Source of the DNA: Nitrospirota bacterium
Lineage (GTDB): Bacteria; Nitrospirota; UBA9217
Direction: 5' to 3'
Length of the DNA: 63,675 nucleotides
NCBI GenBank assembly: GCA_043731355.1
Contig: JAYTJE010000068.1
Location: forward strand, 1-63,675
Shown piece by piece: positions 1 to 22,188 of the stretch. The number at the start of each line of letters is the position of its first letter. Position 1 is the first letter of the stretch. Both the position numbers and the translations under genes were made by a program. The notes under the pieces are model-generated. The model did not search any database, had not been told where the DNA came from, and worked only from the letters and a program-made list of their open reading frames with translations.

Positions 1-1203
1 GGCGCCTGGGGCGCGATCGTCGACCGGTCCGTGCTGGAAGCGCGGTTCGGGAAGTTCGGCGGGCTCTCGAACATCATCCCGGTGGAAGACACGCTGCGGG
101 CCCTCCAGGAAATATCCTTTCTGCATCGCAAAAAATTCTCGCTTCCCATGGTGGGCATCACCGGGTCGAACGGCAAGACCACGACCAAGGAAATGACCGC
201 CGCCATCCTGAAGCAGCGGGGACCGGTGCTGAAGAACGAAGGGAACCTGAACAACCATATCGGCGTGCCGCTTACGCTGATGCAGCTTGATAAAAATCAT
301 TGCGCCGCGGTCGTCGAGATGGGCATGAGCGCTCCGGGCGAGCTCGACCTTTTGGCCAGGCTCGTGAGCCCGGACGTGGGCGTGATCACGAACATCGGCC
401 CGGCGCACCTGGAGTTCCTCGGCTCTCTGGACCGGGTGGCCGATGCCAAGGCGGAGCTGCTGGAAAGTATCAGGGCCAACGGGACCGCGGTCCTGAATGC
501 CGACGATCCGTATTTTTCGGCGCTCAGGAATAAATGGTCCGGCCGCGTTCTTTCCTTCGGCATTGAGCAGCGCGCGGACGTGAAGGCCACCGCCATCCGG
601 CAGGAAAAGGATTTCACCGATTTTACGCTTGAAGCGGAGGGTTCGAAGGTTAGCGTACGGCTCCACGCCGTCGGCAAACACAATATCTACAATGCGCTGG
701 CAGCAGCGGCCGCCGCGCTCGCCGTGGGCACTCCGCTCGAAGCGATACAGTACGGGCTTGACGCTTTCGCTCCGGTTGCCATGCGCTCCGAGCTCAAAGT
801 GATCAAGGGCAGGACCGTGCTTGCCGATCATTACAATGCCAACCCGGGTTCGGTCAGGGCCGCGCTTGAAACGCTGGTCACCCTGCGTCCGGGAGCGCGG
901 TCCGTGGCTGTCCTGGGAGACATGCTCGAACTCGGCCCCTCCTCGGCGGAGGAGCACCGCGAAGTCGGCAGGATTGCCGCGCGCCTGGGCGTGAACGCGC
1001 TGATCACCGTCGGCCCGCTGGCAAAACATATTCTTGAAGGCGCCCATGAGGCGGGCATGCCGAAGGAGCGCCTGTTCGCGTTTGCAGCGGGGTCGCATGC
1101 CAAGGCTGCCGAGCGGCTGGCGAAAGAATCCAAGAACGGCGATGCCGTGCTCATCAAGGGCTCGCGCGGCACGAAGATGGAAAAGATCCTGGAGGAATTC
1201 TAA
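1..1203 (+). CDS. murF: UDP-N-acetylmuramoyl-tripeptide--D-alanyl-D-alanine ligase MurF (5' end off-window)
   Basis: Frame is open from nt 1. Mur-ligase P-loop GITGSNGKTTTKE. Lies directly upstream of mraY with a TAATG stop/start overlap. Confidence 0.9.
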   Translation, partial: GAWGAIVDRSVLEARFGKFGGLSNIIPVEDTLRALQEISFLHRKKFSLPMVGITGSNGKTTTKEMTAAILKQRGPVLKNEGNLNNHIGVPLTLMQLDKNHCAAVVEMGMSAPGELDLLARLVSPDVGVITNIGPAHLEFLGSLDRVADAKAELLESIRANGTAVLNADDPYFSALRNKWSGRVLSFGIEQRADVKATAIRQEKDFTDFTLEAEGSKVSVRLHAVGKHNIYNALAAAAAALAVGTPLEAIQYGLDAFAPVAMRSELKVIKGRTVLADHYNANPGSVRAALETLVTLRPGARSVAVLGDMLELGPSSAEEHREVGRIAARLGVNALITVGPLAKHILEGAHEAGMPKERLFAFAAGSHAKAAERLAKESKNGDAVLIKGSRGTKMEKILEEF

Positions 1204-3815: not shown

Positions 3816-4928
3816 ATGCAGCTGGCAACGACCCAACAAGGCCATTACGACAGCGCGCTGTTCGCGGCGATCCTGGGGCTCATCATCATCAGTGTGGTGA
3901 TGGTCTACAGTTCGAGCAGCGTGGTTGCGCTCACGAGCTACGACGACGCGGCCTATTTTGCCCGCAAGCAGCTTATCTGGGCCGTGGCCGGGTTTTTGGT
4001 CATGGCGGGCGCGATGCGCATGGACCACCGGCTGCTGGGAGAACAGCGGGTCGTTATGGCTATCCTGCTGGTATCGCTGCTGCTGCTGGCGGCGACGCTG
4101 GTGCCCGGCATCGGACACATGGTCAATGGTTCGCGCCGCTGGCTGCGGCTCGGCCTGTTCTCGTTCCAGCCCTCGGAGCTTGCCAAGGTCGCGCTGGTTA
4201 TCTATCTGAGCTATTATATTGTAAAGAAGGGCGAGCGTATCAGGGATTTCATGAACGGCATCATACCCGCCTATGTCATAGCCGGCGTGTTCATGGCAAC
4301 AACAGTGCTCCAGCCGGATTTTGGAACGGCCATGACCATCGCTCTGGTGGCGGGCATCATGCTCTTTGCCGGTGGAGCGAACGTCCTGCATCTGGGCGCG
4401 ACCGTGCTTGTTGGACTGCCTTTTATGTATATTGCCGTATTCCACAAGGCGTACCGGGCACGGAGGATCTTCTCGTTCCTCGATCCCTGGGCCGATCCCC
4501 ACGGCTCCGGGCATCAGATCATCCAGTCCTTCCTCGCTTTCGGCAGCGGCGGTGTGTTCGGCCGGGGGCTCGGCGAGGGGCGGCAGAAGCTGCTCTTCCT
4601 GCCCGAGCGGCATTCGGACTTCATTTACGCCGTCATCGGTGAGGAGCTCGGATTGATCGGGGCGCTTGTCGTGCTTGCGCTGTTCCTGTTCCTTCTGTGG
4701 CGCGGCGTGCGGATCGCGCTTTCGGCAAACGAGCGCTTCGGCCGGTTTCTGGCGTTTGGCATCACGCTTCTGGTCTGCATCCAGGCGCTTATGAACATGG
4801 CGGTTGTTACCGGCATGTTCCCGACCAAGGGCATTGCGCTGCCGCTTATCAGCTACGGCGGTTCTTCTCTGGTGCTCACCATGGGTGCGCTGGGAGTGCT
4901 GCTGAACATCTCCAGGGAAACAACGTGA
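3816..4928 (+). CDS. ftsW: FtsW/RodA/SpoVE-family peptidoglycan glycosyltransferase (FtsW by position)
   Basis: Roughly 10-TM SEDS-type protein with a LPERHSDFIYAVIGEELG motif, located between murD and murG. Confidence 0.88.
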   Translation: MQLATTQQGHYDSALFAAILGLIIISVVMVYSSSSVVALTSYDDAAYFARKQLIWAVAGFLVMAGAMRMDHRLLGEQRVVMAILLVSLLLLAATLVPGIGHMVNGSRRWLRLGLFSFQPSELAKVALVIYLSYYIVKKGERIRDFMNGIIPAYVIAGVFMATTVLQPDFGTAMTIALVAGIMLFAGGANVLHLGATVLVGLPFMYIAVFHKAYRARRIFSFLDPWADPHGSGHQIIQSFLAFGSGGVFGRGLGEGRQKLLFLPERHSDFIYAVIGEELGLIGALVVLALFLFLLWRGVRIALSANERFGRFLAFGITLLVCIQALMNMAVVTGMFPTKGIALPLISYGGSSLVLTMGALGVLLNISRETT

Positions 4929-9296: not shown

Positions 9297-10166
9297 ATGC
9301 GTGATTATAAGAACATAAAAGCACCACGCTCGTACCGCTCGCGCAACTCCCGAACGAATGTCAAGCGGGTGTCGGTGGGCCGCGGGCCGCGAAGGGAGCC
9401 GTCGGACCTGGTGGCGGCGCTGATAAGGACCATGGTGATCATGCTGGTGACCGGGGGCTGCTACCTAAGTTGGATGGGATATCAATGGGCAACGCACACC
9501 CGGACCTTTCAGGTCGCCGGCGTCGATGTGACCGGCGCGCGGCGCCTGAGCAGAGACGAACTGCAAAATATTGCCGGGACTTTCACGGGACAGAGCATTT
9601 TCACGGTAAACCTCAATGAAGCGGCCCAGCGCGCCCGCGCGCTTCCCTGGGTCCGGGACGTGCGGCTCTACCGTCATCTGCCGAACCGCATCAGCATGGC
9701 CGTCTCCGAAAGGACCGCTGTTGCCGTGCTCGACTGCGGCAGCGGACGCTATCTTGTTGACGACGAAGGCGTGGTGATCATTAGAGAAGCCGCGGCCGGA
9801 GAGGACGCGCAGGCGCTGCCGGTCGTGGCGATCACCGGCTGCCGGGCGCAGCCGGGACACGCGGTGGATTCCGGGGCACTGAACGAGGCGTTGGCGCTTT
9901 TGCGGGAGCTCGCACACCGCGGCGGGTGGAGGGCCTCCGACCTTACCATCAGGGCCAATTCGGCGGAAACGCTTGCCGTGGTATACGGCGGGCATGAGTT
10001 CAGGATCGGCAATGGCAATTATGCTGAAAAGCTCAGGCGACTGGGTGAGATCCTGAGCGATGTACAGCAGCGCGGGCTCACGATCGCTTATGTGGATCTG
10101 CGTCCCGAACGTCAGGCGGCGGTGATGGCGAATGCAAGACCAAAAAGCGGGAAGGTAAAAAGGTAG
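9297..10166 (+). CDS. ftsQ: cell division protein FtsQ (POTRA domain)
   Basis: Single TM followed by a POTRA-like FQVAGVDVTGARRLSRDEL segment, located between ddl and ftsA. Confidence 0.85.
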   Translation: MRDYKNIKAPRSYRSRNSRTNVKRVSVGRGPRREPSDLVAALIRTMVIMLVTGGCYLSWMGYQWATHTRTFQVAGVDVTGARRLSRDELQNIAGTFTGQSIFTVNLNEAAQRARALPWVRDVRLYRHLPNRISMAVSERTAVAVLDCGSGRYLVDDEGVVIIREAAAGEDAQALPVVAITGCRAQPGHAVDSGALNEALALLRELAHRGGWRASDLTIRANSAETLAVVYGGHEFRIGNGNYAEKLRRLGEILSDVQQRGLTIAYVDLRPERQAAVMANARPKSGKVKR

Positions 10167-10196
10167 GAAGTTGGGAAGGTAAGAAGAAGCGGAGGA
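10147..10196 (+). repeat. purine-rich GGTAGGAA-type tract spanning the ftsQ stop up to the ftsA start
   Basis: GCGGGAAGGTAAAAAGGTAGGAAGTTGGGAAGGTAAGAAGAAGCGGAGGA. Same word family as 2286-2335 and 60967-60999. Confidence 0.45.
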
Positions 10197-10200
10197 TGCC

Positions 10201-11421
10201 GTGGTAAAAAAGCAGGATACTGTGCTGGTAGGACTCGATCTGGGGACGACCAAGGTCTGCGCCATCGTGGGTGAGGTAAAGGACGACGGGCAAGTGGACA
10301 TCATCGGGATCGGCATCAGCCCTTCCCATGGACTGAAGAAGGGCGTCGTCGTGAACATCGACAGCACGGTCGAGTCCATCCGGAAGGCCGTGCACGAGGC
10401 GGAGCTTATGGCCGGCGTGGAGATCAACTCCGTCTATGTCGGCGTTTCCGGCGGCCACATCAAGGGGCTTAATTCCCGCGGGGTGGCGGCGATCAAGAAC
10501 AAGGAAGTGGGCCCGGCCGACGTGGCGCGCGCCATCGACGGCGCGCGGGCAGTCAACATCCCCATGGACCAGCAGGTGCTGCACGTGCTGCCGCAGGAGT
10601 TCATCATCGACGATCAGGACGGGATCAAGGACCCCCTCGGCATGTCAGGGGTGCGGCTCGACGTCAAAGTGCACATCATCAGCGGCGCGGTCACGTCGAT
10701 CCAGAACATCGTCAAGAGCTGTTCCCGGGCCGGCCTCCATGTCAACGACCTGGTGCTGCAGCCGCTGGCGTCCAGCCGCGCCGTGCTGACCGCCGAGGAA
10801 CAGGACCTCGGCGTTATCGTCGTCGACATCGGCGGCGGTACGACCGATATGGCCATCTTTCTTGAGGGAAGCCTCTGGCATACGGAAGTGCTGCCCGTCG
10901 GCGGCAACCACTTTACCAACGACATCGCCATCGGGCTGCGCACGCCCGCTTCGGAGGCCGAAAAGATCAAGATCAAATACGGGTGCGCGCTGTCGTCGCT
11001 TGTGAAACATGAAGAAACGCTGGATGTGCCGAGTGTGGGCGGCAGGCCTCCGCGCCTCCTGTCCCGGCAAATCCTGTGCGAGATCATCGAACCGCGCGTG
11101 GAAGAGCTTTTCGGCATGATCCAGCAGCGGCTCCGAAAAACCGGGTACGAGGACATGTGCGCCTCGGGCATCGTCCTGACCGGCGGGGTCGCCCTGCTGG
11201 AAGGGCTGCAGGAAGCGGCCGAACGCTATATCGGATTGCAGGTGCGGCGCGGGACGCCGAAAAACATCGGGGGGCTCATGGACGTGGTGAACAGCCCGGT
11301 CTACTCCACCGGCGTCGGTCTGGTGCTGTACGGCGCGGCGAACCAGCGCGAAGAGCCGCGGAAGTTCAGGGGCGGCGGCCTTATCAGCAAAGTCTCAAAG
11401 TGGATGGGGGAATATTTCTAA
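10201..11421 (+). CDS. ftsA: cell division protein FtsA
   Basis: Actin-fold phosphate-1 motif VGLDLGTTKVCAIVGE and a DIGGGTTD motif. GTG start. Confidence 0.93.
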   Translation: MVKKQDTVLVGLDLGTTKVCAIVGEVKDDGQVDIIGIGISPSHGLKKGVVVNIDSTVESIRKAVHEAELMAGVEINSVYVGVSGGHIKGLNSRGVAAIKNKEVGPADVARAIDGARAVNIPMDQQVLHVLPQEFIIDDQDGIKDPLGMSGVRLDVKVHIISGAVTSIQNIVKSCSRAGLHVNDLVLQPLASSRAVLTAEEQDLGVIVVDIGGGTTDMAIFLEGSLWHTEVLPVGGNHFTNDIAIGLRTPASEAEKIKIKYGCALSSLVKHEETLDVPSVGGRPPRLLSRQILCEIIEPRVEELFGMIQQRLRKTGYEDMCASGIVLTGGVALLEGLQEAAERYIGLQVRRGTPKNIGGLMDVVNSPVYSTGVGLVLYGAANQREEPRKFRGGGLISKVSKWMGEYF

Positions 11422-11527
11422 TGCTGAGCTTTGACCAGGAAGCGGATGGAGCAGCGCGGACGCAGGATGCGGCGGACGATGCGAAGCAGGCCCACGACCC
11501 GGAAACCTTGAAAAAAACGGAGGGACC

Positions 11528-12782
11528 GATGGCTGAAGACAATCTCGATTTTGAATTTCAGGACATCATGGAATTCGTCGCAAGCGAGCCCGGAGCCGCG
11601 GCGAAACCCGTTCTCCCCCAGACGGCCGAGGCCGACGGAGCGCGAGCAACGGGCATGCTCCAGTTCGACGAGGAAAAGCTGCCGGCGATCATCAAGGTCA
11701 TCGGCGTGGGGGGCGGCGGAAGCAACGCAGTCTGCACCATGGTCAAGTCCGAGGTGACCGGCGTACAGTTCCTTGTGGCCAACACCGACATGCAGGCCCT
11801 GGAACGCGCATCCGTGCCGGTCAAGCTCCAGATCGGATCCAAGCTCACCAACGGCCGGGGCGCCGGGGCAAACCCGGAGATCGGCAGGAGCGCCGCGCTG
11901 GAAGACGCGGAAAAGATCAAGGACGCGCTGGCCGGCGCTGAAATGGTCTTCATCACCGCGGGCATGGGAGGCGGCACGGGCACGGGCGCGGCGCCGGTGA
12001 TCGCCGGGCTGGCGCGCGAGGTGGGCGCGCTGGTCGTCGGCGTGGTGACCAAGCCCTTTGATTTCGAGGGCGCCAAACGGATGAAGTATGCCAATGAAGG
12101 AATCGCGGAGCTCAAAAAACAGGTGGACGCGCTCATCGTGATCCCCAACAGCCGTGTGCTCAATATGTCCGAGAAGAAAACTTCCGCCCTCGATGCATTC
12201 AAACTGGCCGACAATGTGCTGGTCCAGGCCGTCAAGGGAATCTCCGACGTGGTGATGCTGCATGGACATGTGAACCTCGATTTTGCCGACGTCAAGACCG
12301 TGATGGCGAACAAAGGCAGGGCGGTCATGGGCACCGGGACCGGCACGGGCGAGAACCGGGCGGTCGAGGCGGCGCAGAAGGCGATCTCCAGCCCCTTGCT
12401 CGAGGACGGCTCCATCAAGGGCGCCCGCGGGGTGCTCATCAACATTACCGGCGGCAGCGACATGGGGATCTGGGAGTTCGATGAAGCCACGGCCATCATC
12501 AAGGCGGAAGTGGACCCCGATGCGATCATTCTCTTCGGCGCGGTTATCAATCCGGTCATGAGCGAAGAGGTCATGGTGACGGTGATCGCCACGGGCTTCG
12601 ACGAAGAAGGCGCCAAGACGCGCATGAAAGTGGTATCGAACCTGAAAGAATATCAGAAGATCGGAGAGCGGCCCAAAGCAACGGCGCGCAAGCAGGAGGC
12701 CTTCGCGTTCAAGAACGAGGCGCTCGGCATCGACGACCAGGACTACGACAAACCTACGTTTCTGAGACGGCAGGCGGATTAA
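11528..12782 (+). CDS. ftsZ: cell division GTPase FtsZ (start ambiguous: 11421, 11528 or 11655)
   Basis: Tubulin signatures VIGVGGGGSNAV and GGGTGTGAAPVIA. ATG 11528 follows GGAGGG. ATG 11421 is TAATG-coupled to ftsA. ATG 11655 gives the canonical MLQFDE...IKVIG N-terminus. Confidence 0.93.
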
Positions 12783-12791
12783 CGGAAAATC

Positions 12792-12820
12792 AAATGCCAC
12801 AGCAGAGTGCTGTGGCATTT
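12792..12820. terminator. 13-bp-stem hairpin just after ftsZ (left copy of a duplicated hairpin)
   Basis: AAATGCCACAGCA-gag-TGCTGTGGCATTT. The T-rich tail is better on the minus strand. A near-copy lies at 21334-21364. Confidence 0.5.
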
Positions 12821-12888
12821 GATGCTAAGAGAAATCAGTTTATCCTTACCCTGCCCGCGCACTCTCCTGCTTAAAATAGAATATTTCA

Positions 12889-12917
12889 TTGACATCATTT
12901 TTCAAGAATGTTATAAA
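12889..12917 (+). promoter_or_regulatory. sigma-70-type promoter for the MerR-HicB/DUF3800 operon
   Basis: TTGACA (12889-12894), 17-nt spacer, TATAAA (12912-12917). Followed by a CACGTG-containing inverted repeat ATACGCACGTGTAT, then RBS GAGGTG. Confidence 0.5.
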
Positions 12918-12954
12918 TACGCACGTGTATTTATTATTGCAAGTGAGGTGAATT

Positions 12955-13590
12955 ATGTCATTCAATACGAAGACGGTCGTGAAACTTGTCGGGCTGACTC
13001 AACGGCAGATCGACTACTGGGACAGGACCCATTTTATCAAACCAACAGTGAAAGAGGCGTCCGGCTATGGCACGGGACGGCTGTATTCGTTCGCCGACAT
13101 TGTTCAATTGAAGGTGGCAAAAACGCTTAAGGACAAGGGCGTATCGTTACAGAAGATTAGAAAGTCTATTTCCTACCTCAAAACACACTTTCCCGATATG
13201 AAGAAACCGCTGGCAGAAATGAGGTTCCTGACGGATGGGGAAACAATCTTCGTGCTGACGAAAGACAATAGGGCGATACTCGACACTCTTGCGCGCGGTC
13301 AAATGGTTTTTGCGCTGGCGATCGGCGAGATCATAGAGCAGTTAAAGGGTGAAGTGAAAAACATCAACCAGGACAGAAAGTACAGGGTAGTCGCCAAGGG
13401 GAAATCTTATGATGTCATACTCCATCCCGACACCGAGGATGGCGGCTATTGGGTGGAATGTGCGGTTCTTCCCGGTTGTTCATCGCAGGGCGACACGGTG
13501 GAAGAAGCTTTGGAGATGATCAAGGACTCCATCAAGGGGCATCTTGAACTGGTAGCCGAGAAAAGCAAGAAAAAGAGAGCGGCAGCATAA
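12955..13590 (+). CDS. fusion protein: N-terminal MerR-type HTH, C-terminal HicB-like antitoxin fold
   Basis: N-terminus VVKLVGLTQRQIDYWDRTHFIKP...LYSFADIVQLKVAKTLKDKGVSLQKIRKSI is MerR-like. C-terminus YDVILHPDTEDGGYWVECAVLPGCSSQGDTVEEALEMIKDSIKGHLE is HicB/UPF0150-like. Confidence 0.75.
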   Translation: MSFNTKTVVKLVGLTQRQIDYWDRTHFIKPTVKEASGYGTGRLYSFADIVQLKVAKTLKDKGVSLQKIRKSISYLKTHFPDMKKPLAEMRFLTDGETIFVLTKDNRAILDTLARGQMVFALAIGEIIEQLKGEVKNINQDRKYRVVAKGKSYDVILHPDTEDGGYWVECAVLPGCSSQGDTVEEALEMIKDSIKGHLELVAEKSKKKRAAA

Positions 13591-14226
13591 ATGTCCTTTA
13601 TCTTCATGGATGAGTCTGGCGATCTGGGATTCGACTTCAGCAAGAAGGGGACATCGCACTATTTTCTGATCACATTTCTTTTCAGCAACAACAAGAGGGA
13701 TATCGAAAAATGCGTAAAGAAGGTTCATGCAGGACTACGCAAGAAGTATAAAAAGGTCGCCGTGCTGCACGCTTATAAGGATGAACCAGCGACGAGGAAG
13801 CGGTTGCTTTCCCTGCTTGCCGGGAAGGATTGCAGCATTACGACGATTCTATTAAATAAAAAGAAGGTTTACACGAACCTTCAGGATGAGAAGCCGGTCC
13901 TCTACAATTATGTGACCAACATCCTTCTTGACAGGATATTCTCCAAGAAGCTACTGCATGGTAATGAGTCGATCGAGATCATTGCCTCGCGCAAGGATAC
14001 AAGCAGGTTCCTGAATATGGACTTCAAGTCCTACTTGCAGACACAGCTTACAAAGAATCACAACGTGGCGGTGAAGATCACGATCAAGACCCCTGCGGAG
14101 GAAAAGGCGCTCCAGGCGGTCGATTTCGCGAGCTGGGCAATATTCAGGAAGTACGAGTCAAAGGACGAGGAATATTACAAAATAATCAAAGGAAGGATTG
14201 TCGAGGAGAAACCGTTATTTCCATAG
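13591..14226 (+). CDS. DUF3800-family protein (function unknown)
   Basis: N-terminal MSFIFMDESGDLGF matches the characteristic DUF3800 start. The ATG directly abuts the upstream TAA. Confidence 0.7.
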   Translation: MSFIFMDESGDLGFDFSKKGTSHYFLITFLFSNNKRDIEKCVKKVHAGLRKKYKKVAVLHAYKDEPATRKRLLSLLAGKDCSITTILLNKKKVYTNLQDEKPVLYNYVTNILLDRIFSKKLLHGNESIEIIASRKDTSRFLNMDFKSYLQTQLTKNHNVAVKITIKTPAEEKALQAVDFASWAIFRKYESKDEEYYKIIKGRIVEEKPLFP

Positions 14227-14387
14227 AAACAACAAAGCCCCGTTCGCTAGTTTCGAGGCGCCCTGCGGTACCCCACGAACGAGGACTTACTTGTTGTTAA
14301 TATAATAATGCAGGGATGGCCGGAAGTCAAGGGGTTTGAACAGCAAATTTGCTGAATGGGTTGCCGCGAGCAAGGAGATTGGTATTC

Positions 14388-16421
14388 ATGCCTGAATCAT
14401 TGATCGAACAACTGCCGAAGATAGTTGCCGAGGGCAAGAAGGAAGTCGAGCGGATATTGGAGCGGCTGTCGGGGCCGAACAAGTTGACGCTTCAGACGAA
14501 CGAGTACGTCTTGCCATCGAAGGACAAGTCGGGGTTGTTCCGGGGTGAAGTGAAGGAACTGAACGAGAAGGAATGGCACAACCGGTTGATCTACGGCGAC
14601 AACCTTCTCGTCATGCAGGCATTATTGGCTGGCGATCCGGAGACTGGACTCCCTTCCATGCGCGGCAAGATCGACCTCATCTGCATCGATCCACCGTTTG
14701 ACAGCAAGGCCGATTACCGCACGAAAATCACTCTCCCCGGAACTACCATCGAGCAGAAGCCGACTGTACTGGAGCAATTTGCCTATTCTGATACATGGAA
14801 GGATGGTACTACCAGCTATTTGCAGATGATTTATCCACGGCTCGTTTTGCTGAGGGAGCTTTTGAGCGATGAAGGGTCGCTCTATGTGCACCTTGATTGG
14901 CATGTCGGACATTATGCAAAATTACTAATGGATGATGTGTTTGGAAGGGAGAATTTCCAAAATGAAATTGTGTGGAAGCGAACATCTGCGCACAGTGATC
15001 CAGGAAAGAACGGAAATTGCCATGACGTCATCATGTTCTATTCAAAGGGGGTAGAACACATTTGGAATCAGCAATATTCTGCTTACGATGAAGATTATAA
15101 AAATTCGCACTATCGTCTCGTAGATGATACGGGCCGGAAGTACCGTACAGACAATCTTACTGCAATGGGACTTCAAGGCGGCGGGTATACATATGAATGG
15201 AATGGCGTGACAAAGGTGTGGCGCTGTCCTATCAAGAAAATGCAGGATTTGCATGATCAAGGAAGAATACGTTATACGAAAAACGGTACAGCTGAATATA
15301 TTCGCTACTTGGATGAAATGCCCGGTGTTCCAATCCAAGATGTTTGGGACGATGTTTACGCTGTTAATAGCCAAGCAAAAGAAAGGATTAATTATGGAAC
15401 ACAGAAACCAGAGGCACTTCTTGAGCGCATCATAAAGTCTTCGTCAAATGAAGACTCCATCGTTGCGGATATTTTCGCGGGTTCTGGAACGACCGGTGCT
15501 GTAGCTGAAAGACTTGGCCGTCGTTGGATCATGTCGGATATAGGAAAGCCCGCTATCATGGTCAGTCGGAAGCGGCTTATAGATCAAGAAAGCAAACCAT
15601 TCATATACCAATCCATCGGTGATTATCAAAAAGAAGCTTTTACCTCATCCCGCATGTTCAGGCGCATAGGAGATCTTGCAAATGTCGTGCTGAACCTCTA
15701 CGGCGCTCTGCCGTTTCCTGACGAACAGAACCCGAACCGCAACCTCGGTTACATCAAGAACGGCCATACGCTGGTGCTGGTGGATTCGCCGTCGAAGCTT
15801 ACGGGTTTTGCCACGCTCAAGCGCGCGCAGGAACTGCGCGAATCGTTTCTCGGCGGGTGGAGCAAAGTAATCGTGCTGGGTTGGAACTTTGCCTTTGATA
15901 TCGCAACCATCATCAAGAATCTGAATGACGACAAACTGGAAGTCTTGGTCATTCCGCCTGACCTTTTAGACAAACTTAAATCCAAGTCCAGCTACCAGTC
16001 CTTGCTCAAGAGCGGCAAGATACGCTTCTCGTCGCTTCAATATCTCACGATCAAAAAGCCTGTCGTCAATATCCACTCAGCGGACATCGAAGAGATTATG
16101 ATCGAACTCGACAATTATGTGCTGCTGTCGCCGGACGCGCTGCCTCTCGACGAGGCAAACAAGGAGAAGCTGCAAAATATCATCGCCAATGATCCGCTGG
16201 CGCTCATCGAATACTGGAGCGTTGACCCGGACTATGACGGCACTACCTTCCGGAGCAAATGGCAGGACTACCGGGAAAACACTGAAAGCGATTCCGATCC
16301 CTTCCGCGTTGTGAAGCAGGTGAAGATACTTGCGCCGAAGGTCAAAGGCAAACGGAGAATATGTGTGAAGGCCGTTGATGTGTTCGGGTTTGAAAGTGTC
16401 GTAGTTGATGAAGTGAAATAG
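14388..16421 (+). CDS. mod: beta-class N6/N4 DNA methyltransferase, type III Mod-like, with a long C-terminal extension
   Basis: Motif [18 protein letters not shown] lies upstream of motif [26 protein letters not shown] 14388 sits behind AAGGAG. About 300 aa follow motif I. Confidence 0.85.
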
Positions 16422-16452
16422 CTTCCTCGGCAAATAAACCTTGAGGGACTGC

Positions 16453-18120
16453 ATGACTGAAGAAGAATTGCTTGCATATATAGACAACGGCTGTTCGCGT
16501 GAAAATGAGCAGTGCGAATGGAAGGACTTCAAGAATCTTAAACACGCGGTGTCGGGAGAAGCCGGCGATGATATCATTTCCTATGTATCCGCGTTATCCA
16601 ACATGGAGGGCGGAGCGCTCGTCGTCGGGGTAAATAACAAGCATGTAATTGTCGGCATTCAGGAGTTTCATGATTACACCGCGGACAACATCCGTTTGCG
16701 CATTCTTGGGCGATGCCCGAATCTTGATTCGGAGGGCTTTCGGATCGAGCCGCATACAACAACTGATACGAAAAAGACCGTGTGGATCGTGCGTGTACCC
16801 AGGCATAGACCACGGCTGCCGGTGTATGCGCATGACAAGGCCTGGCAGCGCATCGACGACAGTCTTATTCAAATGCGACCTGAGCGACTGGCTGCGATTT
16901 TAGCGGAACCTTTGGACATTTCCGACTGGTCTTCGCATATCGTGGAGGACGCCGGTCTTGAAGACCTTGACGTCACTGCATTGAAACTGGCACGGGAAAA
17001 ATTCCTGGAGAAGCATCGTAATGCGGCGTTTGCCGATGCGATAAGGGACTGGGACGCTCGGACCTTTTTGGATAAAGCGAAGATAACGGTTCAGGGGCGC
17101 ATCACCCGGACCGCGCTTCTTTTGCTCGGAAAGCAGGAGTCGAGCCACTTCCTGCTGCCCGCAGTTGCCCAAATCACCTGGAAACTTGCGGGCGAGGAAA
17201 CAGCATATGAACATTTCGGACTTCCTTTTTTACTTACCACGACCCAAGTGCTGCGCCGGATACGCAATATCCCATACAAGATATTTCCGCAGAACCAACT
17301 CCTTGCCACTGAAGTCGGAAAATACGACACGCGGGTGATACTGGAGGCCTTGCATAATTGCATTGCTCATCAGGACTATGCGCTTTACTCTCGAGTCCTG
17401 GTTACGGAGCAGGTTGACCGGTTGACCTTTGAGAACGCGGGAACTTTTTACGATGGCAGGCCGGAGGACTATTTCGCGGGCGAACTGACCCCGAAGCGCT
17501 ACCGGAACCCGATGCTCGCGCAAGCGATGGTGAACTTGAATATGATAGACACCGTGGGACGAGGCATCCATACGATGCTTCTCTCTCAACGCAACCGCTA
17601 TTTTCCGCTGCCAGATTACAGCAAGTCAAGGCAGGATAACGTAGTGCTGGATATTTTCGGGCACATGATAGAAGAGAACTATACACGCTTACTGATGGAA
17701 CAGAAGGATTTGCCGCTCAACACCGTCATCCTCCTCGACCGTGTGCAAAAGAGACTGCCCATCACCAATGATGCGGTGGCTATGCTAAAAAGGGCGGGTT
17801 TGATTGAGGGAAGAAAACCCAATTATTTTGTATCAGCTTCAGTTGCCGCGGCAACAGATAATACCGCTGGTTATATGAGGAACATGGGCCTGAAGAAAGA
17901 TAGCTTGAAAGAATTTGTGTTAGGGCATATCCGCCAATTCGGCCCAACGCCTCGCAAGAAATTGGAGGAGTTATTATTCTCTATGCTGCCAGCCGTGCTC
18001 GATCCTGTTAAAAAGCAAAATAAGGTGAAGAACCTGCTTACCGAAATGAGATCAAAGGACGGCACAATCCGGAGTTTGGGCAAAGGGCCGACCGCACTAT
18101 GGGTTATCAATAACAGATAG
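16453..18120 (+). CDS. AlbA_2 (Schlafen-like) / HATPase_c_4-type putative nucleic-acid-binding protein
   Basis: N-terminus ENEQCEWKDFKN...GGALVVGV is AlbA_2-like. The central EALHNCIAHQDY motif is typical of the family often mis-annotated as RecG-like or transcriptional regulator. Confidence 0.7.
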   Translation: MTEEELLAYIDNGCSRENEQCEWKDFKNLKHAVSGEAGDDIISYVSALSNMEGGALVVGVNNKHVIVGIQEFHDYTADNIRLRILGRCPNLDSEGFRIEPHTTTDTKKTVWIVRVPRHRPRLPVYAHDKAWQRIDDSLIQMRPERLAAILAEPLDISDWSSHIVEDAGLEDLDVTALKLAREKFLEKHRNAAFADAIRDWDARTFLDKAKITVQGRITRTALLLLGKQESSHFLLPAVAQITWKLAGEETAYEHFGLPFLLTTTQVLRRIRNIPYKIFPQNQLLATEVGKYDTRVILEALHNCIAHQDYALYSRVLVTEQVDRLTFENAGTFYDGRPEDYFAGELTPKRYRNPMLAQAMVNLNMIDTVGRGIHTMLLSQRNRYFPLPDYSKSRQDNVVLDIFGHMIEENYTRLLMEQKDLPLNTVILLDRVQKRLPITNDAVAMLKRAGLIEGRKPNYFVSASVAAATDNTAGYMRNMGLKKDSLKEFVLGHIRQFGPTPRKKLEELLFSMLPAVLDPVKKQNKVKNLLTEMRSKDGTIRSLGKGPTALWVINNR

Positions 18121-18370
18121 GCATAGAAGTGGCAGAAAATGTTTTAGACTATTTAAACGATTTTTAAACGATTGCAAAGCATAACGGTTTGATTTGTTTA
18201 TGATAATAATTGGATAAAAATGAAGCTCTGCATTTGCCAATTATGAGCCTCATAAGGCTCATAAACGGAAAAAATGAAATAATTCCATGAAATCATTGCA
18301 TTAGAGATGCCCGATAAAAAACTTGAGGACCTTCTGCAACACGAATTGACTTTATCAGGGAGATTTTCCA

Positions 18371-21289
18371 GTGACCATTTCCGTTAATACCGGCACACGC
18401 GATGTTCCGCTAAAATTCGCCAAGGAACTCACGGCCCAGGTGAATAAAGCATGGGAAGACGGCGATTTCTTCTCCAAGACCACACCTGTGACCCAGGATC
18501 TTCTCCGGTTCTGGTTCAATGATACTTTCTGCGACACTCGCAGCGTCAACTTTCACCTTGGCCAGAAGCAGGCCATCCTGAATACCATCTACCTTCACGA
18601 AATTCTGAAGACCGACTCAGTGTTCGATGTGTACGCTGCGGTGAGCGACGAGATCACTGCCGAGATGGACCTTGCCTATCTCAAGAAGGACAAGTTCAGC
18701 CACCCGAAGTATTGCCTCAAGATGGCTACGGGAACAGGGAAAACCTGGGTACTGGGTGCGCTGTTGATTTGGCAGTATCTGAACGCCCGGTTCGAGGAAG
18801 GGCCGAGCGGCCGGTTCTCAAAGAGGTTCTTGATCGTTGCGCCGGGTCTGATAGTGTACGAGCGTTTGTTGGACGCATACCTGGGAAAGGAAGAACCGGG
18901 CGGGACGAGAAGCTTCGAGACATCGGACTTCAAGAAGTTCGAGGAACTGTTCATCCCGCGTGCATATAAAGAAATGCTCTTCGGGTTCATCCAGGCCAAT
19001 GTGGTCAGGAAAGAAGAACTTGGCCGGAAGGTTACGGGCGACGGTATGATCGCGATCACGAACTGGCATCCTTTGATAGGCGAAGAGGAAGAAGAGACAT
19101 CTTCTGTCTCTCCTCTGGAAGACCCCTCCGGGGCGGTGAAGGAACTATTGCCGGTGACGCCTGGGACTTCGGCAGGTCATTCGCTTGAGTCGCTGGACAA
19201 TCAATACCTGAGCGGCGGAGAGATCAAATATCTGGCTGAACTCGATAATCTTGTAGTGTTTAACGATGAAGCGCACCACATCCACGAGACTAAAAAGGCC
19301 GGGATCGTATCGGAAGTGGAGTGGCAGAAGTCGCTGAACAGAATAGCCGAGGGAAAAGGGAACCGCTTTGTTCAGATTGATTTTTCCGCGACGCCCTATG
19401 ACGTAACCGGCAGCGGCCAGAAGCGGACCAAACATTTCTTCCCGCACATCATAGTGGACTTCGACCTCAAGACCGCTATTCACAAGGGCTTAGTCAAGAC
19501 CATCACACTCGACAAACGCAAAGAGATCGCGACCATGGAGCTTGACTTCAAGGCCGTGCGCGATGGGAACACGGTAGTCGGCCTCTCGGACGGACAGAAA
19601 CTGATGCTCCGGGCAGGGTTGCAGAAGCTAAAGATACTGGATCAGCAGTTCGTGGAACTGACGAAAGACAAGTCCGGCATGAGCGATAAACACCCAAAGA
19701 TGCTGGTTGTCTGCGAGGATACGAACGTCTCGCCCAAGGTCGTTGAATTCCTCGTGAACAGTGAAGGGCTGGGCGCGGATGATGTGATGCAGATTGATTC
19801 GGACCGGAAGGGATCGATCCCGGCGAAAGAGTGGCAGGAAGTGAAACAGCGGCTTTTTAATATGGACCGGCACGAGAAGCCGAAAGTTGTCGTATCCGTG
19901 CTGATGCTTCGTGAAGGCTTCGACGTGAGCAATATCTGCGTGATCGTCCCTCTTCGCTCGTCCCAAGCGCCGATTCTTCTGGAACAGATTATCGGCCGAG
20001 GCTTGCGGCTCATGTGGCGAGAGCAGGATTATAAGGACATCAAAGACGAGAACAGGATCAGGTTGCTTCAAAAGAAACAGGAACCGTCCAACTATCTCGA
20101 CATCCTGAGTATTGTAGAGCACCCCGCGTTTATCGAGTTTTATGATGACCTCGTGAAGGAAGGTCTCATCGCTGAATCGCATGACCTGCCGGGAGACCGG
20201 GAAGGTGTTCTCGGAGACCTCATCCGGGTGGGTCTGAAGGAGAACTACAAGGATTACGATCTCTACTGGCCGATCATCGTGCAGGACAAGGAAGAACTCC
20301 TTCAGGTCATGGAACCGTCCGCTGAATATTTAACGAAATTCGATTGGTATACCCTCGACCAACTCAAGAATATGGTTCCGAAGGAAGGGGAGTCTTTCAT
20401 CTCCGAGGAAGTGACCGTCAAGACGCGCTTCGGTGAGTACCGAGTGTCGGGCGACTTGTTTACCGCCAAGAGCTATAATGAATTTCTTTCCAAGATCATC
20501 AGAGTGATCACGGGCGCTTTTGAGTCAACAGGCAGAAGGACTAAGGATTATCCCTTCATGCAGATCAACAATGTGATGCTGGTGAAGGTGGTTGATGATT
20601 TTATCAGGGGCCGCTTGTTCAGCCAGGTTTTCGATCCTTTCATGGACAATAATTGGCGGGTTTTGCTCCTATCAAAACAAGGCATCACGCAGCACATTAT
20701 CAAGGAAGTAAGCCAGACCATCTACGATATGCAGAACAATATACGGATTGAAGATGCCGTCGTGATGAAACGGTATTTCTCGGAGATTGACGAGTTGAAA
20801 ATGCGGGAAAACTTTTCGCTGCCGATCACCAAAACCATCTATGACCGGTTGCCGTACCCATCGAACAAGGGCGAGCTGGAGAAAAACTTCATGCTCTATT
20901 GCGATGGAGATGCACAGGTTGACAGCTTCCTCAAGATAAACGATAAGTACCATCTGTTTGCCCATTTCAGCTATATTCGCACTGACGGAATGCTGTCCGC
21001 GTATTATCCTGACTTTATCGTCAAGATCAACACCGACATGTACCTGGTGGAGACGAAGGCGCAGAAAGACGTGAAGGATGCGAACGTAAAGCAGAAGGAA
21101 CTCGGCGCTCTGGACAGGCTGAACAAGATCAATGAATTGAACCCCGATGACCGTATGGGGTGTGAATGGCATTATGTTCTGCTCGGCGAGACAACCTTCT
21201 ATACCATGCGCGACAAAGGCGCGTCTATAAAAGAGATCATGGATTTCTCGAAGCTGACGAGGCAGAAGGTTAGCGGCAGTCTTTTTTAG
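18371..21289 (+). CDS. res: type III restriction enzyme Res subunit (SF2 helicase plus PD-(D/E)xK nuclease)
   Basis: Walker A MATGTGKTW, DEAH box VFNDEAHHI, motif III FSATP, motif VI QIIGRGLR. C-terminal YYPDFIVK...YLVETKAQKD nuclease motif. Confidence 0.85.
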   Translation: MTISVNTGTRDVPLKFAKELTAQVNKAWEDGDFFSKTTPVTQDLLRFWFNDTFCDTRSVNFHLGQKQAILNTIYLHEILKTDSVFDVYAAVSDEITAEMDLAYLKKDKFSHPKYCLKMATGTGKTWVLGALLIWQYLNARFEEGPSGRFSKRFLIVAPGLIVYERLLDAYLGKEEPGGTRSFETSDFKKFEELFIPRAYKEMLFGFIQANVVRKEELGRKVTGDGMIAITNWHPLIGEEEEETSSVSPLEDPSGAVKELLPVTPGTSAGHSLESLDNQYLSGGEIKYLAELDNLVVFNDEAHHIHETKKAGIVSEVEWQKSLNRIAEGKGNRFVQIDFSATPYDVTGSGQKRTKHFFPHIIVDFDLKTAIHKGLVKTITLDKRKEIATMELDFKAVRDGNTVVGLSDGQKLMLRAGLQKLKILDQQFVELTKDKSGMSDKHPKMLVVCEDTNVSPKVVEFLVNSEGLGADDVMQIDSDRKGSIPAKEWQEVKQRLFNMDRHEKPKVVVSVLMLREGFDVSNICVIVPLRSSQAPILLEQIIGRGLRLMWREQDYKDIKDENRIRLLQKKQEPSNYLDILSIVEHPAFIEFYDDLVKEGLIAESHDLPGDREGVLGDLIRVGLKENYKDYDLYWPIIVQDKEELLQVMEPSAEYLTKFDWYTLDQLKNMVPKEGESFISEEVTVKTRFGEYRVSGDLFTAKSYNEFLSKIIRVITGAFESTGRRTKDYPFMQINNVMLVKVVDDFIRGRLFSQVFDPFMDNNWRVLLLSKQGITQHIIKEVSQTIYDMQNNIRIEDAVVMKRYFSEIDELKMRENFSLPITKTIYDRLPYPSNKGELEKNFMLYCDGDAQVDSFLKINDKYHLFAHFSYIRTDGMLSAYYPDFIVKINTDMYLVETKAQKDVKDANVKQKELGALDRLNKINELNPDDRMGCEWHYVLLGETTFYTMRDKGASIKEIMDFSKLTRQKVSGSLF

Positions 21290-21391: not shown

Positions 21392-21763
21392 TTAGTGTGA
21401 ATCGGTTTTCTGGTTCGTTGGCGGCGTTCCGTCAGGCATACCGAACCGCAGCTTTTCGATGGACCGCTCCATACCCAGGCGTGTCGCGGAAAATCCGAGC
21501 GGCGTCGGGTCTTCCTCTTTTTTCACCGCATTCATGAAATCACATCTCCAGCAGTTCGACAGCTTCTGTGCATAGGTGCCCTGGATCTTGCCGCCACAGA
21601 GCGAGCCTGCAATTGCCCAGCAGGCCCTTCCGGCATTTTTCCCCTCGTGGACGCCGTGCAGGTCCTTATGGGTGGTAACGGGGCAGATGCCCAGCTCCTG
21701 GGACTTGTGTCCTCCCGGCTGTCTTCCGCAATTTTTGTGTTCCCAGCAGTTCAATTTAGCCAT
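21392..21763 (-). CDS. small cysteine-rich protein, two-CW-domain-like (paralogue B)
   Basis: CWEHKNCG...CPV...ACWAIAGSLCGG...CWRCDF pattern. By eye roughly 80 percent identical over the first ~100 aa to the upstream gene. Confidence 0.7.
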   Translation of the reverse strand: MAKLNCWEHKNCGRQPGGHKSQELGICPVTTHKDLHGVHEGKNAGRACWAIAGSLCGGKIQGTYAQKLSNCWRCDFMNAVKKEEDPTPLGFSATRLGMERSIEKLRFGMPDGTPPTNQKTDSH

Positions 21764-22188
21764 CGTTCAATACTCCAACCTTTCTGTAAAAATTTTCCTC
21801 CCCCGGAAGTTTGTAGTTTAGTTTTGATCTGGTCAACCACCGGCGCGCTTCTCATTGGGGCGGTTTTGGTTGCCCGTTCTTTTTCGAGCGCCTTGTCCAT
21901 GCCGAGACGCGTGGCGGAAAAACCGAAGGTGGTTGGTTCTTCCTCGATCTTGACGGAGTTCATGAAATCGCATCTCCAGCAGTTGTGCAGTTTTTGCGCG
22001 TACGTGCCCTGGATCTTGCCGCCGCACAGCGAACCCGCAATGGCCCAGCAGGCCCGGCCCGCATTCTGACCCTCATGTGCCCCGTTCAGCTCCTTGTAGG
22101 TAGTGACCGGACAAATACCGAGCTCTGCGGCCTTGCCGCCGCCCGGCTGCCGTCCGCACTTTTTGTGCTCCCAACAGTTTTTCTTCAT
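21751..22188 (-). CDS. small cysteine-rich protein, two-CW-domain-like (paralogue A)
   Basis: MKKNCWEHKKCGRQPGG...ACWAIAGSLCGGKIQGTYAQKLHNCWRCDF. Overlaps paralogue B by 13 nt. Confidence 0.7.
   Translation of the reverse strand: MKKNCWEHKKCGRQPGGGKAAELGICPVTTYKELNGAHEGQNAGRACWAIAGSLCGGKIQGTYAQKLHNCWRCDFMNSVKIEEEPTTFGFSATRLGMDKALEKERATKTAPMRSAPVVDQIKTKLQTSGGGKFLQKGWSIERWLN

Follow-up and report, generated by a model that had tools for sequence, protein, structure and literature searches.

HicB antitoxins neutralise HicA by packing on its sheet of the double-stranded RNA-binding domain (dsRBD) type (PMC10865869). HicB folds preceded by a DNA-binding domain are known from hicBA classes 5 and 6 (Phd/YefM), and a MerR-type domain is absent from the 14 HicA contexts catalogued by Gerdes (PMC10865869). 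The MerR-type protein CvkR acts as a repressor in type V-K CRISPR-associated transposons (PMC9938897). In type VII retrons, the effector-type gene associated with the system is DUF3800 (PMC7736814), which is also an accessory of Cas12a2/a3 and Cas13 systems (PMC10910872, PMC13594972, PMC12669027). RNA motifs associated with DUF3800 genes have been described as DUF3800-I to -XI (Weinberg et al. 2017, PMC5737381; Rfam RF02964, RF02967, RF02968, RF02969, RF02984). The locus described here, from a Nitrospirota bacterium (UBA9217), joins a MerR-HicB gene (gene 1), a DUF3800 gene (gene 2) and a convergent structured small RNA (sRNA) gene. It lies on contig JAYTJE010000068.1. The whole stretch of DNA analysed, 63,675 nucleotides (nt), is called the window; coordinates are window positions, and L-numbers are labels of relative loci that were fetched.

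Type I toxin-antitoxin (TA) systems with a convergent, 3'-overlapping antisense RNA include TxpA/RatA and BsrG/SR4, and those with nuclease toxins RalR/RalA and SymE/SymR. The best reading of the present locus is that a cassette of DUF3800 and sRNA replaced hicA in a hicBA module. The anatomy, the replacement, the RNA with its strand and the fold were shown. The outcome would be a chimeric TA-type module with DUF3800 as a toxin-like effector, controlled by the sRNA and having a role in abortive infection or addiction. The probability of this composite reading is put at roughly 0.45.

The MerR-HicB gene and the exchange of its partner

Gene 1 and gene 2 encode 211 amino acids (aa) each and share one frame (Table 1). 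The TAA of gene 1 directly abuts the ATG of gene 2. The open reading frames (ORFs) bear out the gene pair at 12955-14226 and its abutment, as reported in an earlier note on this DNA. The MerR, HicB-like and DUF3800 domain calls of that note were also upheld, all Pfam profiles scoring above their curated cutoffs. In gene 1, MerR_1 matched residues 5-73 (E 1.9e-13, 50.7 bits, cutoff 21.6) and HicB_lk_antitox (PF15919) residues 152-208 (E 1.7e-8, 35.1 bits, cutoff 27). NCBIfam gave weak MerR-type matches only for the pair, and PADLOC added nothing for either protein. Residues 10-137 aligned by sequence to CvkR/Alr3614 (PDB 7xn2, E 5.5e-6), and phmmer matched residues 151-203 to the HicB structures 6u0i, 6g1c and 6hpb. 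The AlphaFold2 (AF2) model of gene 1 had a low confidence (predicted local distance difference test, pLDDT, 57) and was used for local matches only. With Foldseek, its N-terminal part matched 7xn2 with a probability of 1.0 and its C-terminal part 6g1c with a root-mean-square deviation of 0.8 Å over 51 columns. Gene 1 is predicted to be a MerR-type repressor module (~residues 1-140) fused to a HicB partial-RNase-H domain (~residues 150-205). Its first part is like CvkR (Alr3614; PMC9938897) in sequence and fold, a repressor-type MerR of mobile or defence elements, but CvkR is a stand-alone protein of ~150 aa, whereas gene 1 adds a C-terminal HicB domain and a TA-type operon. The MerR-first domain order, which the earlier note had regarded as unusual for HicB, was found as described, but N-terminal DNA-binding domains are already known in hicBA classes 5 and 6.

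Databases contain ~1,800 relatives of gene 1, of which the best 120 have ~210 aa throughout, with 72-96% identity, and come mostly from Nitrospirota metagenome-assembled genomes (MAGs). A hicA gene lies downstream of gene 1 in 46 of the 54 homologue loci fetched, overlapping by ATGA or abutting. This partner is a canonical HicA of 76 aa with a GSH motif, identified as HicA_toxin by Pfam. DUF3800 takes the downstream position in 6 of the 54 loci, which are four distinct modules after removal of duplicates. The other two loci have neither partner, one of them (L139) with a decayed hicA remnant. The 46 HicA-paired loci take in L008, whose hicA is truncated: an intact MerR-HicB gene is followed by a hicA of 19 codons ending in a stop (4637-4700). 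The ORF after this remnant (4707-4796) is of an unconfirmed family. In L138/L139 (3634-3740), a diverged N-terminal hicA remnant follows an intact MerR-HicB gene. Decayed hicA beside intact MerR-HicB in L008 and L138/L139 indicates that orphan antitoxin or regulator genes outlast the loss of the toxin.

The promoter of gene 1, read from the sequence, consists of a -35 box TTGACA (12889-12894), a 17-nt spacer and a -10 box TATAAA (12912-12917). GAGGTG is located 5 nt ahead of the ATG. An inverted repeat with perfect 8-nt arms, ATAAATAC-GCACGT-GTATTTAT, overlaps the -10 box and the expected transcription start; it occurs once in the window, at a chance expectation of 0.02. The near-consensus promoter and the repeat had been noticed before, and both proved to be conserved across the family. 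The layout of TTGACA, ~17 nt and TATAAA/TATAAT was present upstream of ~45 gene-1 homologues, and the family-wide operator consensus, TATAAATACA-N4-TGTATTTATA, lies over the -10 box. Conservation concerns the arms, ATAAATAC/GTATTTAT. The CACGTG emphasised in the earlier note is not a conserved core, as the centre varies among relatives. Classical MerR activators have their operator between the -35 and -10 boxes and an over-long spacer of 19-20 bp. Gene 1 differs from them, with a 17-nt spacer and a palindrome over the -10 box and the start site. The nearest solved relative of its MerR part is the repressor CvkR. On sequence evidence, the promoter and operator have the layout of an autorepressed TA promoter, unlike that of a MerR-type activator.

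The HicA partner, the domain matches and the promoter of the autorepressed type identify gene 1, from its sequence, as an antitoxin/repressor of the hicBA class with a MerR-type DNA-binding domain. The family has in common with hicBA classes 5 and 6 of Gerdes the hicB-hicA order with linked or overlapping genes, the N-terminal DNA-binding domain and the palindromic operator. It differs in the DNA-binding domain, which is a CvkR-like MerR and not Phd/YefM, HTH-Xre or RHH. The window differs further in having DUF3800 in place of hicA. Its gene 1 has the HicB fold, the putative DNA-binding domain and the palindromic operator, and an adjacent hicA is missing. In agreement with the earlier note, which had seen no hicA-like ORF, tblastn found no hicA-like sequence in the whole 63.7-kb window (best E 1.6). 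The gene 1 family is hicBA, but the window locus has lost the toxin.

The replacement was traced in related loci. L006, from a related Nitrospirota MAG, is collinear with window positions 9417-13596 (ftsQ, ftsA, ftsZ and gene 1) at 88% DNA identity, and its gene 1 protein is 97% identical to that of the window. L006 has hicA where the window has DUF3800, and the similarity stops six bases into the downstream gene, after TAA ATGTCC. In a second comparison, the gene 1 proteins of L131 and L008 are 95% identical and the upstream DNA is similar; L131 has DUF3800 at the place of the truncated hicA of L008. The DUF3800 of L131 is 94% identical to that of the window. The four DUF3800-paired modules are located after ftsZ (window), after a higBA pair (L131), after RNase J (L002) and after POR genes (L142), and all have one junction, GCN TAA ATGTCC. 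Blastn matched the window to L002 over 12909-14332 and to L131 over 12909-14253, where the L131 contig ends.

In the gene-1 tree, the four DUF3800-paired members are interspersed among HicA-paired relatives. The nearest relative of each is HicA-paired, except for L131, whose nearest relative is L008 with the hicA remnant. Window and L131 are discordant, with 73% identity for gene 1 and 94% for DUF3800. Window, L002 and L142 are concordant, with 78-84% identity for gene 1 and 83-85% for gene 2. The sequences fit one or few captures of DUF3800 into the toxin slot, followed by spread of the module with continued exchange at the boundary between gene 1 and the toxin. A derivation of the Met-Ser start of the paired DUF3800 proteins from codons 1-2 of hicA was considered and was not provable; ~10 unpaired homologues also start with Met-Ser.

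The earlier note had proposed a type II pair, in which the HicB domain binds and neutralises DUF3800 and the MerR domain autoregulates; the sRNA would then be an extra layer or irrelevant. DUF3800 stands exactly in the HicA slot with the coupling of TAA and ATG kept, and four genomic contexts contain the three-part module, always with the same junction. The parallel divergence of both genes in window, L002 and L142 and the invariant residues of the HicB domain in an alignment that includes a DUF3800-paired member also agree with such a pair. Co-conservation of MerR-HicB and DUF3800, on which the proposal depended, was not observed: the usual partner of gene 1 is HicA, and a MerR-HicB gene was near none of 80 other DUF3800 homologues (metagenomic, 51-74% identical, fetched flanks up to 3 kb). 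An adaptation of the HicB domain to a new partner was not supported, its core being identical in the window protein and the 97% identical, HicA-paired orthologue. HicB packs on the dsRBD-type sheet of HicA (PMC10865869), whereas the predicted fold of DUF3800 is unrelated and RNase HII-like. DUF3800 relatives at 77-79% identity are without a protein partner and always with the sRNA. A type II pair is unlikely.

DUF3800 and the convergent small RNA

Pfam assigned gene 2 to DUF3800 (PF12686) over residues 3-187 (E 1.2e-13, 52.5 bits, cutoff 21). The protein has the N-terminal DE motif and the C-terminal QxxD (Q175xxD178) of the family, and D7, E8, D114, Q175 and D178 are invariant in 21 homologues with 63-94% identity. 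The AF2 model had a pLDDT of 85.8 and a predicted template modelling score of 0.85. The top PDB matches by Foldseek were structures of archaeal RNase HII (1eke, E 2.5e-6; 2dff; 3p83). The likeness covers the full-length fold, with a template modelling score of ~0.5, the N-terminal D-E and the third invariant Asp near residue 114. Unlike archaeal RNase HII, to which it is only 12-19% identical, DUF3800 has no housekeeping context and is linked to the sRNA and to defence islands. The RNase HII-like fold agrees with earlier modelling (PMC7736814, PMC10910872). DUF3800 is a predicted RNase HII-like nuclease, with D7, E8, D114 and Q175xxD178 as candidate catalytic residues.

The constant partner of this DUF3800 subfamily, missed in the earlier note, is a structured sRNA gene of ~74 nt. 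It is convergent with DUF3800 and abuts the DUF3800 stop codon. Among the loci compared at that stage, all DUF3800 homologues whose downstream flank was present had the sRNA directly behind the stop codon, and the association is one to one. Alignment of 75 distinct copies yielded a three-helix hairpin (P1-P2-P3) with the conserved unpaired segments AGUAA and (G)UAAAUAG, and RNAalifold independently gave the same fold. In the alignment, 92.3% of the cells were paired, compared with 79.4% in shuffles (0 of 500 as high) and 42-49% in slid controls. Changes on both sides were present in 17 of 24 pairs; P2 was 99% and P3 98% paired. Read from the minus strand, the alignment has 216 G.U pairs, compared with 12 when read from the plus strand, and canonical pairing was 92.3% versus 80.9%. 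This asymmetry and the difference in pairing place the RNA on the minus strand, antisense to DUF3800. The window copy folds at z = -3.65 on this strand, and on the plus strand the intergenic region gave no convincing fold (z = -1.04). Covariance model R1 detected the window copy with 83.2 bits as the sole hit in the window and gave no hit in any HicA-paired locus. A 28-nt stretch of the RNA is identical across loci with 73-83% identical proteins, which indicates a constraint on the RNA itself.

The sRNA has a promoter of its own, with a -35 box TTGACT (14330-14325), a 17-nt spacer and a -10 box TATTAT (14307-14302) on the minus strand. TTGACA and TAnnnT are conserved in an alignment of 76 copies. 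A recognisable pair of -35 and -10 boxes was found in 52 of the 76 copies (138-nt segments), mostly with a 17-nt spacer. After the hairpin, a U-rich tract reaches the DUF3800 stop codon.

Rfam 15 had no family for the sRNA at its gathering thresholds in the window, in a 171-nt search (E <= 10) and in 20 further loci (E <= 5), with 40 related loci scanned in all. The same library found DUF3800-V, -VII, -IX and -X elsewhere. Copies of DUF3800-V, -X and -VII on IMG/VR contigs (L143 2646-2744, L144 2605-2678 and L146 2720-2800, all on the minus strand) run opposite to distant DUF3800 genes, 7-171 nt beyond their 3' ends, with the same strand and side as the sRNA here. In L094, a DUF3800-IX RNA (1045-1116, minus strand) lies 2 kb upstream of a DUF3800 gene that has the new motif at its 3' side. 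Like the motifs of Weinberg et al. (2017), the sRNA is a covarying structured RNA that adjoins a DUF3800 gene, with UAA-containing conserved loops and a terminator-like 3' end. The conserved fold, the lack of an Rfam 15 match and the same place and orientation of DUF3800-V, -VII and -X characterise the sRNA, at the sequence level, as a new structural variant in the known group of DUF3800-associated RNAs, in a comparison confined to Rfam models. The DUF3800-X junction GAGUAAGUCCUUC resembles AAGUAAGUCCUCG of the sRNA, and the 5' junction GAGUAAGUCC is common to both, but model R1 hits DUF3800-X copies weakly (17 bits) and the interior (P3 and the UAAAUAG loop) differs. A literature search on drum and skipping-rope RNAs found nothing functional.

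The module resembles type I TA systems in having a small RNA gene with a constitutive promoter, which converges on the gene of the protein and is complementary to the 3' end or 3' untranslated region (UTR) of the mRNA. The overlap requires that the DUF3800 mRNA reaches the sRNA gene, as we infer. Unlike the small, hydrophobic membrane peptides of type I systems, DUF3800 is a 211-aa soluble RNase HII-like protein. The fold and the loops of the sRNA are themselves conserved, which suggests protein binding as in type III antitoxins. The sRNA is not of the ToxIN-like type III kind: it is single copy, convergent and without repeats. Type VII retrons (reverse transcriptase, non-coding RNA and DUF3800; PMC7736814) share with the module the N-terminal DE motif, the RNase H2-like model, the structured RNA partner and the defence-type organisation. 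Unlike the retron proteins, which are without the Q of this motif, the window DUF3800 keeps QxxD, and the sRNA is a short hairpin with its own promoter. No reverse-transcriptase domain was found in gene 1, in the three genes downstream of DUF3800 or among the 25 commonest neighbour families of the subfamily.

Neighbourhood and mobility of the module

The neighbours of the DUF3800 subfamily were enriched in restriction-modification (R-M) methyltransferases (types I, IIG and III), specificity and restriction subunits, RadC and Bro-N. CRISPR-Cas genes were also enriched, and R-M methyltransferases were the commonest neighbours. Genes downstream of DUF3800 were co-oriented in 68 of 78 cases. Copies with 77-79% identity are located directly upstream of type I-C cas3; they have the sRNA and neither MerR-HicB nor any other protein partner. 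These observations may point to a non-toxic ribonucleoprotein of DUF3800 and sRNA that aids neighbouring defence operons (R-M, CRISPR-Cas), for instance by acting on RNA/DNA hybrids, MerR-HicB being a captured promoter and regulator left after the loss of hicA. The strong conservation of the RNA in sequence and structure, including G.U pairs and loops, is typical of protein-bound RNA, and DUF3800 is a recurrent CRISPR accessory (PMC10910872, PMC12669027). The co-oriented downstream genes are often R-M methyltransferases or cas3, and gene 1 persists beside decaying hicA in L008 and L138/L139. However, the neighbouring systems are of many unrelated types (R-M I, IIG and III; CRISPR I-C) and many loci have none, which fits co-localisation in islands better than a specific partnership. 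A harmless accessory would also leave the repeated placement in a toxin slot unexplained. This reading is unlikely.

DUF3800 has ~1,500 homologues, and in many genomes its cassette with the sRNA exists on its own. Cassettes are homologous from the ATG of DUF3800 to shortly after the sRNA promoter; ahead of the ATG, the loci have unrelated DNA. In 17 of 63 loci, an unrelated gene ends nearby, with the ATG at -8 to +15 nt from its stop codon. A promoterless cassette that always abuts an upstream stop codon describes the loci only in part, as 22 had no co-directional ORF within 150 nt. Two cassettes upstream of type I-C cas3 have flanking direct repeats, of 160-216 nt with 79-91% identity in L133 (4751-4966 and 5785-5947) and of 31 nt in L132 (1595-1625 and 2503-2533). 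Such repeats point to an insertion by recombination in which the target region was duplicated. The small ORFs that precede DUF3800 in both loci were considered as antitoxins and rejected; they are translated copies of the duplicated flanking DNA. In L067 (1100-5200), small unrelated ORFs form an array around the cassette; two of them are paralogous and 134 aa long, and ~50-nt repeated elements containing AATTTAGCCCGAAGTTGA space the ORFs. The layout resembles an integron-like cassette array. Apparent MerR neighbours in L067 and L070 were discarded: their "50% identity" was an artefact of aligning unrelated proteins. These ORFs are the paralogous 134-aa proteins of an unassigned family, and they are probably the source of a Nuc_deoxyrib_tr match in the neighbour census. 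Phage GenBank records had no DUF3800 match, and plasmids had three distant ones. IMG/VR had no match to the RNA core pattern, and the DUF3800 relatives there were only 24-28% identical.

A selfish mobile cassette, in which the nuclease, possibly with the RNA, promotes insertion and the toxin slot reflects an insertion preference, is very unlikely. The sharp limits of homology, the proximity to unrelated stop codons, the direct repeats of L132 and L133 and the array in L067 agree with mobility. Yet terminal inverted repeats and short target duplications are lacking, the window cassette has no flanking repeats, and the long duplications have the look of homologous recombination. Phage records and, in this form, IMG/VR are without the cassette; it is rare on plasmids, and the fold is RNase HII-like, not transposase-like.

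In the window, ddl, ftsQ, ftsA and ftsZ precede the module. A type III R-M system follows, with Mod at 14349-16421, Res at 18371-21289 and an AlbA_2/HATPase_c_4 gene at 16441-18120 between them. Every gene from 12955 to 21289 has the same orientation. Housekeeping genes return past ~22.3 kb, so the defence island is short; the earlier note had placed the module at the head of such an island, and of this the adjacent R-M system was confirmed. No plus-strand promoter-like site was detected at 14227-14348, between DUF3800 and the start of mod (TTG 14349 or ATG 14389). Control of the R-M operon by gene 1 in the manner of a C protein, with DUF3800 as a passenger, is the least probable explanation, which would suit the common orientation and the lack of a promoter-like site before mod, but the surroundings of gene-1 homologues are diverse and in many cases free of R-M genes, the neighbour they keep is hicA, the palindrome is present only at the promoter of the module itself, and the modules of L002 and L142 have no R-M genes downstream.

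Table 1. Positions of the module and its parts in the window, with the basis of each assignment
Feature	Position	Strand	Basis
Module promoter	12889-12917	+	Sequence; same layout upstream of ~45 gene-1 homologues
Probable MerR-HicB operator, inverted repeat ATAAATAC-N6-GTATTTAT	12913-12934	.	Perfect arms, family-wide consensus
Gene 1, CvkR-like MerR-type module and HicB domain (predicted)	12955-13590	+	Pfam, phmmer, Foldseek
Gene 2, DUF3800, predicted RNase HII-like nuclease	13591-14226	+	Pfam PF12686, AF2, Foldseek
Structured small RNA gene, convergent with DUF3800	14226-14299	-	Covariation, model R1
Sigma-70-like sRNA promoter	14302-14330	-	10/12 matches; conserved in copies
Three-part module (promoter/operator, gene 1, DUF3800, sRNA and its promoter)	12909-14332	+	Blastn to L002 and L131
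Replacement junction TAA ATGTCC	13588-13596	+	Homology to HicA-bearing modules stops here
Type III R-M genes, co-oriented with the module	14349-21289	+	Pfam, PADLOC

Further features were noted around the module. A perfect 16-bp inverted repeat with a 3-nt loop is located at 12789-12823, straight after the ftsZ stop codon. It matched the Rfam sRNA STnc380 weakly (27.8 bits, gathering score 60) and is most likely just the ftsZ terminator, at the left edge of the inserted module region. AlbA_2/HATPase_c_4 genes recur near these modules; one is also located directly upstream of the DUF3800 cassette in L133-L135 (L133 3353-4687). At the far edge of the R-M island, two overlapping paralogous Cys-rich ORFs of 123 and 145 aa are encoded on the minus strand (21392-21763 and 21751-22188). 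They have KNCWEHKxCGRQPGG...CPVTT...NAGRACWAIAGSLCGGKIQGTYAQKLxNCWRCDFMN in common and no Pfam match.

Proposed function and meaning of the chimeric module

In the proposed chimeric module, MerR-HicB would act on the palindrome over the -10 box to repress the promoter from which it is expressed. DUF3800 would be transcribed from this autorepressed hicB promoter, with low-level translation by coupling to gene 1. The DUF3800 mRNA would run into the sRNA gene, which would make the sRNA perfectly complementary to its 3' UTR. DUF3800 may be an effector of the toxin kind, cleaving RNA within RNA/DNA or RNA/RNA duplexes. The sRNA, and not the HicB domain, would be dedicated to its control, as an antisense regulator and probably a bound pseudo-substrate or cofactor. 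As fold, loops and G.U pairs are conserved beyond the needs of antisense pairing, the sRNA may contact the protein directly, as inhibitor or cofactor. The module would serve abortive infection or addiction in the small defence island. The placement in a toxin slot, the precedent of type VII retrons and the defence-island context suggest such a harmful effector.

Several points weigh against this proposal. Type I toxins with a 3'-overlapping antisense RNA are mostly small membrane peptides, not enzymes of 211 aa. Residues of the HicB domain remain invariant when a DUF3800-paired member is included, and the parallel divergence of gene 1 and DUF3800 in three modules may mean that the HicB domain still matters for DUF3800. 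The sRNA might be a cofactor rather than an inhibitor. Most copies have a stronger U-tract than the window copy (UUGUUGUUUCUAU). Read-through from the hicB promoter may drive the type III R-M genes, in opposition to the convergent sRNA promoter. For DUF3800, a widespread predicted nuclease family associated with defence, the toxin slot offers a natural hint at the function.

Three features are new here: a hicBA class of MerR type, an RNA motif of DUF3800 genes whose strand and promoter are defined, and a natural replacement in a toxin slot. The MerR-type (CvkR-like) hicBA class was previously undescribed and is abundant in Nitrospirota and Thermodesulfobacteriota. The replacement is a natural experiment, which put DUF3800 in the position of an RNase toxin behind an antitoxin/repressor and argues for a dangerous effector under tight control. 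If this is true, the repeated replacement of hicA would be the first evidence of DUF3800 as a functional equivalent of a TA toxin.

DUF3800 recurs in loci of type VII retrons, Cas12a2/a3 and Cas13 and beside eleven published orphan RNA motifs. Tentatively, and with considerable doubt, DUF3800 and its convergent RNA may represent a new class of RNA-controlled nuclease toxins or effectors, a hybrid of type I and type III TA systems with the RNA as pseudo-substrate or antisense. Such a class would account for DUF3800 in type VII retrons and in the accessory roles with Cas12a2/a3 and Cas13. The cassette of DUF3800 and sRNA is compact, with predicted promoter, strand, fold and end mapped, and can be synthesised and tested directly. 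If the sRNA inhibits or assists the nuclease, this would provide a working hypothesis for the other DUF3800, drum and skipping-rope RNA motifs.

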